Shown here piece after piece: positions 1,115-4,972 of a stretch of DNA of 7,739 nt (position 1 is the stretch's first letter; each line of letters opens with the position of its first letter). Origin of the DNA: a virus (Duplodnaviria; Heunggongvirae; Uroviricota; Caudoviricetes); IMG/VR virus record IMGVR_UViG_2695420487_000009; one strand, written 5' to 3'. The position numbers and the translations under genes were made by a program. The notes under the pieces were generated by a model. It did no database searches, was not told the DNA's origin, and was given only the letters and a program-made list of their open reading frames with translations.

Positions 1115-1831
1115 TTAAATTCTGGTCCTTACAATATCAACCTGAAGATTCTTATCTTGTGCTGATTGATAAATGACAAACCTTTTACTACCTGCATTGA
1201 AAGAAGTAGACAAAACCAGACAATTATCATAACGAGCAAGAACATAATACCAACCATCATTATAATTAATCATTTCATATTCTTTCTTAAACTGTGGTTT
1301 GTAATATCCTGTCAGAAATGAAAAAAGCCAGAAATATGCCACAAAAGCAATCATCACAATCTCAAAAAAATGTTTTTTTATAAATGGCTTATCATAGAAG
1401 CATGATACCGATAAAAATCGCCCATAAGATCTTATCGAAATTGTAACCGCCAGCGCAATCGCTGCTGACAGTAGCAAAAGAGGTACCTGAATCTTCTGTC
1501 TCAATATAGAAAACTCAATAATTGCCGGCACAAACAATAATTCCACAGCAAAATAAAGGCGAAATACATTTAGCTCTTGCATAGAATGTTTTCTTTTCAC
1601 TGCGAAAAAGAATACAACACCAATACCCCAACCGATAAGAAATATAGCAATGACGATAACTGCAAAAAATAAACTTCTGGCAACATCATCAACACCTGCA
1701 CCTACAATCCACCATGGGAAGCCGTAGTAAAAAGAAGTACCCCATCCATAGAAATAAGCACTCCCCCATCCAAGGCATCCCATGTAGGCAATAAAAAGTG
1801 AAGAACTCCTGAGCAGCGCACCATCCTTCAT
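1115..1831 (-). CDS. Polytopic inner-membrane protein of unknown function (about 5 predicted TM helices plus a ~50-aa C-terminal soluble tail); AT-rich moron downstream of Q
   Basis: Open frame 1115..1873 on the minus strand (252 codons). Hydrophobic runs include SLFIAYMGCLGWGSAYFYGWGTSFYYGFPWWIVGAG, SLFFAVIVIAIFLIGWGIGVVFFFAV, LYFAVELLFVPAIIEFSIL, VPLLLLSAAIALAVTISI and FFEIVMIAFVAYFWLFSFLTGYY. I favour the third in-frame ATG (1831, MKDGALLRSSS...) because it is preceded by a G-rich SD-like GGGGTGG, and the first ATG (1873) sits inside a candidate -10 element; 1873 and 1858 remain possible starts. Composition is clearly more AT-rich than the flanking Q and esterase genes. Confidence 0.6.
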   Translation of the reverse strand: MKDGALLRSSSLFIAYMGCLGWGSAYFYGWGTSFYYGFPWWIVGAGVDDVARSLFFAVIVIAIFLIGWGIGVVFFFAVKRKHSMQELNVFRLYFAVELLFVPAIIEFSILRQKIQVPLLLLSAAIALAVTISIRSYGRFLSVSCFYDKPFIKKHFFEIVMIAFVAYFWLFSFLTGYYKPQFKKEYEMINYNDGWYYVLARYDNCLVLSTSFNAGSKRFVIYQSAQDKNLQVDIVRTRI

Positions 1832-2010
1832 AACCACCCCAATACAAGATGGTAACATTGGCTTACAACTCATAACAAAAGCAATTCAATGCCGTCAAGA
1901 GGTTACAGGCTAAAAAAACTCTATTACATTGCAGTCAGCATGTTTACTACACAAATACAATTCAGAGCATAAAAACTACTCGGCGGCAGGTTATTGAGCT
2001 CATCAATGAC

Positions 2011-3395: not shown

Positions 3396-3579
3396 CTCTT
3401 TCACTCCATCCGCGATGAACCATGAGAACGTCGTTGACGATGGCGTGCATTTTCCCGTCTTTATCATCAACGTATTTTCTGACCGTACCGCGACTACATT
3501 TCAGTCTGCGTGCTACTTCTGTCTGGTTTCCGTATGCTTCAACGAGCATGTCTGGAATGGTTTTTACTGAGAACGTCAT
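3373..3579 (-). CDS. ninH: NinH (68-aa lambda nin-region protein, small DNA-binding-like)
   Basis: 68-aa product [68 protein letters not shown] corresponds to lambda NinH in length and sequence as I recall it. Its start overlaps the ninG stop and its end overlaps the ninI start, the typical nin-operon coupling. Confidence 0.85.
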
Positions 3580-4178
3580 GCGGCCTCACTTCTGCTATTT
3601 CGCAGGTCTTTGAGTTTCTGCTGATACTCCGCCTTAATGGCCCTGCACTCTTCGACAGTCCAGCGATGGCGGTTATGGTTTGATTCGATTTCGTCTACTG
3701 CTTCCTGCCCGATGCGGTTAATCAGTTCGACGCGATACGGAACGAGATTTCCGCTTTTATGTTGGTTGCACACCACGCATTGCTTGTGAATATTGCGTTC
3801 ATCAAATCGGAGTTGAGGCGCCGCAGCAGTTGTCCGGTAATGCCCGGCATCCCACTGAGCAGACGTGAGCGTTCCGCACGAGATACATGGTAAGTCGCGA
3901 TCTCTTTCTCTGATGAAGGCGTTTACGGCTTGTTGGGCTTGTTTAATCCAGTAACTGCGGGGCTTTAAGGCGAGTTTTCGAATCTTCAGTTTATCTTTCT
4001 GTTTCTGCTCCTCTCGTCGTCGTTTCTTCTCTGCTGCTTTTTCCGCTTTTTCGCGTTCTTTGCTTCGTCGTTCGAGTGCTATCTTGGTTCCACAAATCTC
4101 ATTACACCAATATTGATTTTGATATTTTGGTATAAACCATTCATTGCAACATTTACATTTCCTTCGATAGATTCGCAT
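3576..4178 (-). CDS. ninG: NinG/Rap-family recombination-promoting protein with a divergent N-terminal ~30 residues
   Basis: From the ATG at 4178 (strong SD AAGGAG 5 nt upstream) the 200-aa product is [104 protein letters not shown]...[70 protein letters not shown]. From GTKIALE onward it matches lambda NinG as I recall it; the first ~30 residues are divergent and encoded by AT-rich codons. The ORF-track start at 4238 lies inside the upstream endonuclease gene and is rejected. Confidence 0.85.
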
Positions 4179-4719
4179 AAGTGCTCCTTTCGTTGCCGGA
4201 AAAATCACCGTAATACTTATCTCGGGCTTCTTCAGCAACTAGTACCGCTAACTCCAGATCATCAAAGCATCCGAAGTGTTTACTCTTGCCATGGAATCCT
4301 AGCCTAACATTCCATTTTTTCTGTCGTTTGTGCCAAGTAACCCCTCTGCAACCTGATTTGCTATTCTTTCGGATCCTTATATTTCTTGAATTTTCTATTG
4401 GCAGGCATTCTCTTAAATTTTCTGGCCTATTGTCGGTCCTAATTCCATTAACGTGGTCAATTTGACCAGCAGGCCAACGATTATGAGTTATGTAAAAAAC
4501 TAAGACGTGAGTTTTATATCTACGCCCATCTATCATGATCATTGAATAACCGTTGGAATCAAAAGTTCCAGCAACACTATTTAATGCTATCCTTCCCTGA
4601 GTGGGAACTTTCCATCTAAATACCCCGGTAGATTTATCGAAACTTAGTAACTCAAATATCCTTTTAACAGTTAAATCTTCTCTTTTACGGTTACATCGTC
4701 TTCGCGCTGGTTTAGCCAT
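4153..4719 (-). CDS. HNH homing endonuclease with C-terminal AP2-type DNA-binding domain, translated from the original ninG start codon (first 9 residues MAKPARRRC are ninG-derived)
   Basis: Product [188 protein letters not shown]. The block [27 protein letters not shown] is an HNH_3-type catalytic motif, and [49 protein letters not shown] is an AP2-like domain; this pairing is typical of free-standing phage homing endonucleases. The region is visibly AT-rich relative to the flanking nin genes. The upstream GTG at 4800 is an alternative but less likely start. Confidence 0.8.
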
Positions 4720-4828
4720 CGCCTTCTTCCTCCGTAATGGTTTTCTGAATTTGGCCACCTGAACAGAGCTCACCAAAGCTATGGATGTCGGTATTTCCAC
4801 AATACCAAGATGGCGAAAATAACTGCAT
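4712..4828 (-). CDS. ninF: NinF-like small cysteine-containing protein (38 aa)
   Basis: Minus-strand frame from ATG 4828: [38 protein letters not shown], ending in a TAA that overlaps the ninG-derived ATG. Termini resemble lambda NinF (M.SPS... and ...EEEDDG) as I recall it, and the position immediately 5' of ninG fits. It falls below the ORF-track length cut-off; short length makes this moderate confidence. Confidence 0.5.
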   Translation of the reverse strand: MQLFSPSWYCGNTDIHSFGELCSGGQIQKTITEEEGDG

Positions 4829-4918
4829 GATAAGCCTCAGGGAAAAGGGAAGACACTACCCCCGATAATTCAGAAACAAATCGAAATACATGAACTAAAG
4901 AAAAAACCACAACAAACA

Positions 4919-4972
4919 GAAATAGAAATAGAAATAGAAATAGAAATAGAAATAGAAATAGAAATAGAAATA
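4919..4972. repeat. Perfect tandem hexanucleotide repeat (GAAATA)x9
   Basis: Direct reading: nine uninterrupted GAAATA units, 54 bp, in the intergenic region between the minus-strand nin genes and the divergent plus-strand 617-codon gene. Confidence 0.95.

Follow-up and report, generated by a model that had tools for sequence, protein, structure and literature searches.

We suggest that a free-standing homing-endonuclease cassette of the HNH-AP2 type occupies the 5′ end of ninG (rap) in lambdoid prophages and that it has spread by intronless homing, an explanation that we consider probable on the evidence set out below. The cassette was studied in a 7,739-nt stretch of viral DNA (IMG/VR record IMGVR_UViG_2695420487_000009; hereafter the window), which holds genes of a lambdoid prophage nin-Q region, namely ninG, ninH, a NinI-type phosphatase gene and Q, all on the minus strand. 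A young, near-invariant block is found here on many old and divergent flanks in two genera, a pattern that recent horizontal spread by gene conversion would produce.

Anatomy of the insertion

The junctions were located by comparing lambda and 70 other insert-free ninF-ninG loci with 67 insert-bearing loci. For the left junction, extracts of 137 loci anchored by k-mers were used; when the window is aligned with lambda alone by MAFFT, all of the lambda sequence falls on the second ninG start and this junction is masked. On the left, the window (4736–4691) follows the lambda type from the ribosome-binding site (RBS) through ninG nt 1–29 (ATGGCTAAACCAGCGCGAAGACGATGTAA, window 4719–4691) and departs from it at nt 30. 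The left junction is identical in 67 of 67 insert-bearing loci, which match insert-free alleles up to nt 29 and differ at nt 30, indicating a single founding event. As the junction lies exactly after nt 29, the ninG RBS and the MAKPARRRC codons now head a nuclease of 188 amino acids (aa), whose first 9.7 codons are ninG-derived and whose C-terminal tail reads through a replacement ninG start. A first-pass annotation of this DNA had described a lambda-like ninG start continuing in frame into an open reading frame (ORF) with HNH_3 and AP2 domains and its own stop, and the coordinates bear this out (ATG at 4719, TAA at 4155–4153). On the right, lambda-type sequence is back at 4094 (TGTGGAACCAAG, encoding C-G-T-K), and the junction, with the lambda type resuming at that position, reads TGTGGAACCAAGATAGC.

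The nuclease stop is the TAA of a TGTAA within the replacement ninG start, and the left junction falls directly after the homologous lambda-type TGTAA, so that the insert is flanked by two diverged copies of the first 26–29 nt of ninG. The nuclease ORF closes at its own stop, and ninG restarts from its own RBS and ATG as a complete ORF; judged by this gene anatomy alone, the nuclease gene would be free-standing and a self-splicing intron excluded. The restart had likewise been seen earlier, 26 nt before the nuclease stop and with its own RBS, and it stands (ATG at 4178, AAGGAG at 4189–4184), with a spacer of 5 nt between AAGGAG and ATG. From its ATG (4178–4176) to its stop at 3576 ninG encodes 200 aa, and the protein matches Pfam PF05766 over profile positions 5–192 of 193 (E=4e-85), a full-length match. 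Because the cassette supplies a recoded ninG 5′ end with its own Shine-Dalgarno sequence, full-length NinG is still made; the beginning of its ORF and the end of the nuclease ORF share 26 nt (4153–4178). A promoter scan found no sigma-70-like promoter on the minus strand upstream of the nuclease and a weak terminator-like hairpin in the flank at 4863–4847. The nuclease ORF can be extended to a GTG at 4800 in the flank context of this window only. Coordinates of the features are collected in Table 1.

Table 1. Features at the ninG insertion in the window.
Feature	Coordinates	Strand	Description
Lambda-type island	4691..4736	-	ninG RBS (GGAGG 4733-4729) and ninG nt 1-29 (ATG 4719; MAKPARRRC codons plus 2 nt of codon 10)
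Mobile cassette	4095..4690	-	596 bp in place of 64 nt of lambda-type ninG (nt 30-93)
HNH_3 + AP2-like endonuclease ORF	4153..4719	-	188 aa, ATG 4719-4717, TAA 4155-4153
AAGGAG RBS of re-started ninG	4184..4189	-	within the 3′ end of the nuclease ORF, 5 nt before ATG; direct sequence reading
AT-rich replacement ninG 5′ end	4095..4178	-	28 codons, four Cys kept, 3 codons shorter than lambda type
Lambda-type ninG body	3576..4094	-	with 4095-4178, intact 200-aa NinG/Rap ORF; proposed right homology arm
38-aa ORF in ninF position	4712..4828	-	overlaps nuclease start by 8 nt; annotated gp37 in SH2026Stx1

The nuclease gene is labelled 'HNH endonuclease' and nothing more in public records. Its HNH_3 domain (PF13392) is significant by profile search (E=4.2e-11, 42.7 bits against a Pfam cut-off of 24.8), the protein matches PHROG 99, 'HNH endonuclease', at E=1.4e-71, and D88, H89, N101 and N110 are invariant in an alignment with the 14 nearest relatives. 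The AP2 match (PF00847) has E=1.8e-4 and 22.2 bits, below the Pfam cut-off of 33.3, and a sequence search of the PDB returned a weak AP2 match alone (E=0.19). In an AlphaFold2 model (mean predicted local distance difference test score, pLDDT, 87.8), residues 127–173 form three strands and a helix, and residues ~122–173 superpose on the AP2 domains of AtERF1, WRI1 and TEM1 with root-mean-square deviations of 1.1–2.0 Å over 48–61 residues; the Foldseek probability for these plant matches is ~1.0, but their E-values are weak (0.03–0.6). The best fold match of the model in the PDB is I-HmuI (PDB 1u3e), at 18% sequence identity and a Foldseek E-value of 0.012. Of the two domains proposed initially, HNH_3 thus holds by profile search, and a C-terminal AP2-type domain is assigned from a sub-threshold profile match combined with similarity of the predicted fold. 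The 14 nearest relatives start a few residues before an LLxYDPxTGVFRWK motif, so MAKPARRRC is not native to these proteins and the fusion point is near the original start of the nuclease. A role in terminase function or packaging, as for HNH proteins next to terminase genes, was rejected from location and family.

The replacement ninG 5′ end stands out in composition, with 28.6% GC and 0.25 GC at third codon positions (GC3), against 49.9% and 0.50 for the remainder of ninG; the nuclease body has 39% GC and the replaced 64-nt lambda-type segment 52%. The replacement N-terminus is 42% identical to that of lambda, whereas NinG bodies are 85–95% identical to lambda and the ninG body of the window is ~97% identical. 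The divergent, AT-rich N-terminus giving way to lambda-like sequence, from 4094, is thus as first described. The interpretation as a footprint of homing is supported as regards mobility, by a cassette at least 99% identical between flanks that differ by 4–16%; the AT-rich segment does not, however, behave as a variable co-conversion tract. The MRIYRRKC N-terminus is joined to at least five or six clusters of NinG bodies, 85–95% identical to lambda, and an AT-rich ninG start without an HNH gene was found in none of 5426 complete E. coli genomes. As far as these comparisons indicate, the AT-rich 5′ end behaves as a fixed part of the cassette.

Spread, maintenance and competing explanations

The cassette was found in 538 of the 5426 complete E. 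coli genomes, at 571 places, and the best copy in each genome is at least 99% identical over at least 80% of the cassette query; one partial match that was inspected proved to be an insertion sequence (IS) of the IS3 type between the HNH gene and ninG. Carriers include Shiga toxin 1 (Stx1) phages, Salmonella prophages and prophages of enterohaemorrhagic E. coli (EHEC) O157, O26 and O111. In an alignment of 61 loci with the insert, the 596-bp cassette has 23 segregating sites and a nucleotide diversity of 0.0039, and the adjoining 519-bp ninG body has 235 such sites and a diversity of 0.042. The difference in segregating sites is significant at p=7e-66 (Fisher's exact test), and diversity jumps at both cassette edges. 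Five Salmonella loci carry cassettes 99.0–99.7% identical to that of the window next to ninG bodies only 84–86% identical to it, the divergence starting ~18 nt beyond the right junction.

Two outcomes that the first-pass annotation had named as refuting its interpretation, a failed domain assignment and a lack of any insert-free target, were both checked, and neither came about. Insert-free target alleles are abundant. In lambda, HK544, mEp234, SfI, phage 21 and many others ninF and ninG are contiguous and match at 97–98% on either side of the insert, and they are contiguous likewise in 80 IMG/VR loci, the 80 alleles closest to lambda that served as the insert-free comparison set. Insert-bearing and insert-free loci share ninF alleles and their ninG bodies are interspersed: divergence (dxy) between the bodies of 61 insert-bearing and 82 insert-free loci is about the same as diversity within each set, the first 50 bp included; clusters of bodies at 1% distance contain both kinds, some bodies being identical; the single-nucleotide polymorphisms at 4086, 4062 and 4038 are common to both sets at similar frequencies; and the 60 nt of upstream ninF are identical between some loci of either kind.

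These alleles bear on whether the HNH gene was simply an original neighbour of ninG that lambda-type phages have lost. The constant position of the gene is in keeping with such a history and nothing more is; the ninG start is present twice, as 29 nt of lambda-type sequence at the left edge and as an entire divergent start at the right; the cassette stands apart in composition; the ninG and ninF alleles of loci with the insert are nested among those without it; and a deletion would need to have restored precisely 64 nt of lambda-type sequence. We give this history almost no credence, and its form without any empty site is excluded by the contiguous ninF-ninG alleles, the nesting and the composition.

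Of 71 loci, 69 have an intact nuclease ORF; of the other two, one has a frameshift and one an IS3 insertion at the 3′ end of the ORF. The ratio of non-synonymous to synonymous polymorphism (pN/pS) is ~0.29, an estimate from only 29 segregating sites (14 synonymous, 15 non-synonymous); ninG is intact, at 200 or 203 aa, in 62 of 66 insert-bearing loci. Purifying selection on the nuclease would also be expected if it were kept for a benefit to the phage, for example through marker exclusion or degradation of competing lambdoid phages during co-infection or co-induction, with homing as a by-product. The cassette is frequent in strains with many lambdoid prophages, and the T4 Seg and Mob nucleases do cause marker exclusion (PMC2988022). 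Such a benefit is compatible with homing, however, and predicts the same sequence pattern, and the family is typical of selfish homing endonucleases, so that we think it quite improbable as the primary reason for the presence of the gene.

We therefore propose the following course for spread by homing. The nuclease would be part of the nin operon transcript, and its translation would begin at the captured ninG RBS and ATG. During lytic growth, or co-infection with another lambdoid genome, it would cut insert-free ninG, probably in or beside the replaced 64-nt segment. The break would be repaired from the cassette-bearing genome, copying the cassette; homology would be provided on the left by ninF and ninG nt 1–29 and on the right by the highly conserved ninG body. 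The AT-rich replacement segment, at 28.6% GC in place of 52%, would make carriers immune to cutting; AP2 domains are reported to favour GC-rich DNA (PMC10448857). The cassette probably arose when a cut lambda-type ninG was joined illegitimately and in frame to a donor with an HNH gene just upstream of a divergent ninG.

Several points weigh against this proposal. Cleavage and its site, strand specificity and over-transmission (super-Mendelian inheritance) are predicted from sequence. The right boundary falls at a mosaic junction that is general in ninG: nucleotide identity between the Emek and lambda alleles rises there from ~65% to ~97% without any nuclease gene, and ordinary recombination in the conserved stretch could produce the boundary. 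Many of the loci belong to clonal EHEC lineages, which makes the counts non-independent. A megablast query spanning ninG, the cassette and the 5′ flank gave 2430 matches, some of them lambda-type ninG without the insert, and most cassette genomes have more ninG-region matches than cassette copies; this surplus, read from match counts, suggests insert-free ninG alongside the cassette in the same genomes. Such copies are to be expected if lysogens do not express the nin operon, and an inactive nuclease fits equally well.

The donor lineage was also not found: no HNH relative among 5.8 billion proteins is more than 44% identical, and none of 185,579 species representatives in GTDB has the cassette, a Planctomycetota relative at 39% identity being the one match. 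In the 5.8-billion-protein set a 40-aa N-terminal query retrieved only partial E. coli NinG entries, the full-length proteins in that set being clustered at 90% identity under lambda-type representatives; N-termini were compared by a search with full-length NinG. The closest other NinG N-termini (P0091 and P0092) match at 18–19 of 30 residues and belong to a class, RRKCKIC..PKY..WC, that also includes Xenorhabdus and Photorhabdus proteins. A further point against is a metagenomic locus (L153) with an AT-rich ninG start 90% identical to that of the cassette and no HNH gene there, the one insert-free relative of this segment that was found. The segment is an island of 28.6% GC in a gene of 51% GC, and upstream of it an unrelated 74-aa ORF also overlaps ninG by 26 nt, with its stop at the same TGTAA. 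The locus may be related to the donor allele, or it may descend from an invaded lineage in which the nuclease was later lost. An origin of the ninG 5′ end in an AT-rich phage found no confirmation either in those N-termini or in L153, which is GC-normal outside the segment. The next gene of this locus (3604–4731) is a 375-aa ORF that joins an HNH_3 endonuclease in frame to an antiterminator-Q-like C-terminus, and it may be a second homing endonuclease that captured a nin-region gene.

Some of these points would suit a relic, that is, a homing endonuclease that arrived in a single insertion, has become inactive or irrelevant, and owes its distribution to ordinary recombination in the conserved ninG stretch and to hitch-hiking with successful EHEC and Stx prophages. 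The one shared junction, which implies a single origin, the position of the right boundary, the extra ninG-region places and the many copies in clonal O157, O26 and O111 lineages all agree with it. Against it, diversity in the cassette is roughly one tenth of that in the adjoining flank, and the cassette lies on ninG bodies up to 16% different in two genera, so that a relic would require many recent and tightly bounded transfers, and the ORF is maintained as described, with its catalytic residues conserved. We regard the relic as rather unlikely and favour spread by homing.

A bolder form of the homing proposal is that the cassette is a self-contained 'cut-and-replace' drive, in which the recoded 5′ end of the target both restores its function and abolishes the recognition site. 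The Cys-rich N-terminal ~31 residues are the most variable part of NinG generally; nine or more types of this segment occur on bodies with 85% identity to lambda or higher, and all of them switch at one common point. This hypervariability across lambdoid phages would then record a prolonged arms race of ninG with homing endonucleases, and insert-free relics like L153 would represent the loss phase of the homing cycle. We put this forward tentatively, as an idea that could well be wrong.

Genomic contexts and neighbouring genes

The cassette occurs in several settings. E. coli E21845/O/A and PEC422 and Salmonella prophages have the order ninB-(ninD)-ninE-(ninX)-ninF-[HNH]-ninG-ninH, and in these canonical contexts ninF overlaps the nuclease start exactly as lambda ninF overlaps ninG. 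O157:H7 has an IS30 remnant upstream of the cassette. In the window, in O26/O111 prophages and in the Stx1 phages SH2026Stx1 and AU6Stx1, ninF is replaced by a low-GC insert with an antisense ORF of 590–617 aa; the DNA upstream of 4736 in the window is not ninF but this unrelated insert. The ORF has 617 aa here (590 in RefSeq; 5207–7060, plus strand, 34% GC), no Pfam match and a match to PHROG 9230, for which no function is assigned. In the O26/O111 prophages and Stx1 phages its place is between ninE and the HNH gene, in antisense orientation, and it looks like a moron that replaced ninF.

The 38-aa ORF of Table 1 belongs to the flank of the window, outside the cassette, and other loci have a bona fide ninF in its position. 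It ends in EEEGDG, where lambda NinF ends in EEEDDG, and may be a ninF remnant or substitute. A hexanucleotide array at 4914–4972 consists of 9.8 copies of AAATAG on the plus strand (TTTCTA on the minus strand); the corresponding stretch of SH2026Stx1 exceeds this one by ~57 nt, which suggests that strains differ in repeat number. Downstream of Q, a gene at 1115–1873 (minus strand, 36.5% GC) encodes a predicted membrane protein of 252 aa that matches PHROG 1521 (unknown function) and has no Pfam match.

In E. coli PK8241 an IS3-family element (L011, 4550–5763) lies between the nuclease gene and ninG, removing the last nuclease residues and parting ninG from the upstream genes. Other HNH genes are found in the same prophages (L157, 5183–5603; L159, 4408–4929; L001, 528–1139): a NUMOD4+HNH_3 gene just downstream of Q in Salmonella loci, and an HNH endonuclease gene directly after dnaB in SH2026Stx1. 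Lambdoid early-right regions may hold several homing-endonuclease-like genes.

Relation to known homing systems

The working principle proposed for the ninG cassette matches the intronless homing of SegF, SegG and MobE in T-even phages (PMC2988022, PMC2790892). As in those phages, where the nuclease gene lies outside any intron or intein (a state suggested at ninG by the gene anatomy), its presence varies at a fixed site between otherwise homologous genomes, a divergent and presumably immune neighbouring target sequence travels with it, and spread would proceed by double-strand-break repair and co-conversion. The two systems differ in host, a temperate lambdoid prophage as opposed to lytic T4-like phages; in the nuclease start, which at ninG is borrowed by in-frame fusion with nt 1–29 of the target whereas T-even Seg and Mob genes have their own; in the complete new target 5′ end that the ninG cassette brings; and in nuclease type, which is GIY-YIG for Seg and of the T4 Mob type for Mob but HNH_3-AP2 at ninG, where activity is predicted from sequence features.

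An HNH domain with a C-terminal AP2 domain is an established architecture of phage homing endonucleases (PMC10448857, PMC2248197). The ninG nuclease shares with members from Xanthomonas phages Xp10, OP1 and Xop411 (PMC2248197), with the 'IPA-HNH' of ICP1 (PMC10448857) and with PHROG 99 the order of N-terminal region, HNH_3 and AP2-like domain, the small size (~160–190 aa) and the patchy occurrence in phage genomes. It is at most 44% identical to other members, its AP2 match falls below the Pfam cut-off, and unlike its relatives it has a chimeric, ninG-derived N-terminus and a C-terminal tail that runs into the ninG start. I-HmuI of Bacillus phage SPO1, the best structural match of the nuclease part, is an intron-encoded nickase with different DNA-binding modules.

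Capture of a start has a precedent in gene 31 of the Salmonella phage epsilon34 (PMC2629481), in which the eaE N-terminus is fused in frame with an HNH homing endonuclease. There, too, the phage is temperate and P22/lambda-like and the HNH ORF has captured the N-terminus and start of the invaded gene; the gene is, however, eaE of the early-left operon, the HNH lineage is another, and neither a replacement 5′ end nor population-level spread is reported. In the 'genes in pieces' case of Aeromonas phage Aeh1 (Friedrich et al., 2007, as summarized in PMC2988022), a free-standing HNH gene, mobE, lies inside the nrdA coding sequence with host function retained, as at ninG; according to that summary nrdA is split into two polypeptides that reassemble, whereas ninG is kept whole by a duplicated and recoded 5′ end. 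No description of a ninG-associated homing endonuclease was found in the literature searched, and the SH2026Stx1 genome announcement is silent on it. What distinguishes the ninG case is the combination of start capture with a supplied replacement 5′ end, in the tractable lambda system.

Nearly all work on homing endonucleases concerns lytic phages, T4-like and SPO1-like, and the ninG cassette would be an apparently active example in the lambda nin operon. As this operon belongs to the best-understood of phage genetic systems, homing, co-conversion and immunity are open to simple lambda crosses. The cassette is common, being present in about one in ten complete E. coli genomes, and a nuclease that breaks and converts lambdoid DNA at ninG could contribute to mosaicism just upstream of Q and the stx genes. 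Its architecture would offer a tidy way into a coding sequence without an intron or intein, in which the start of the host gene is captured and a presumably immune 5′ end is supplied in return.

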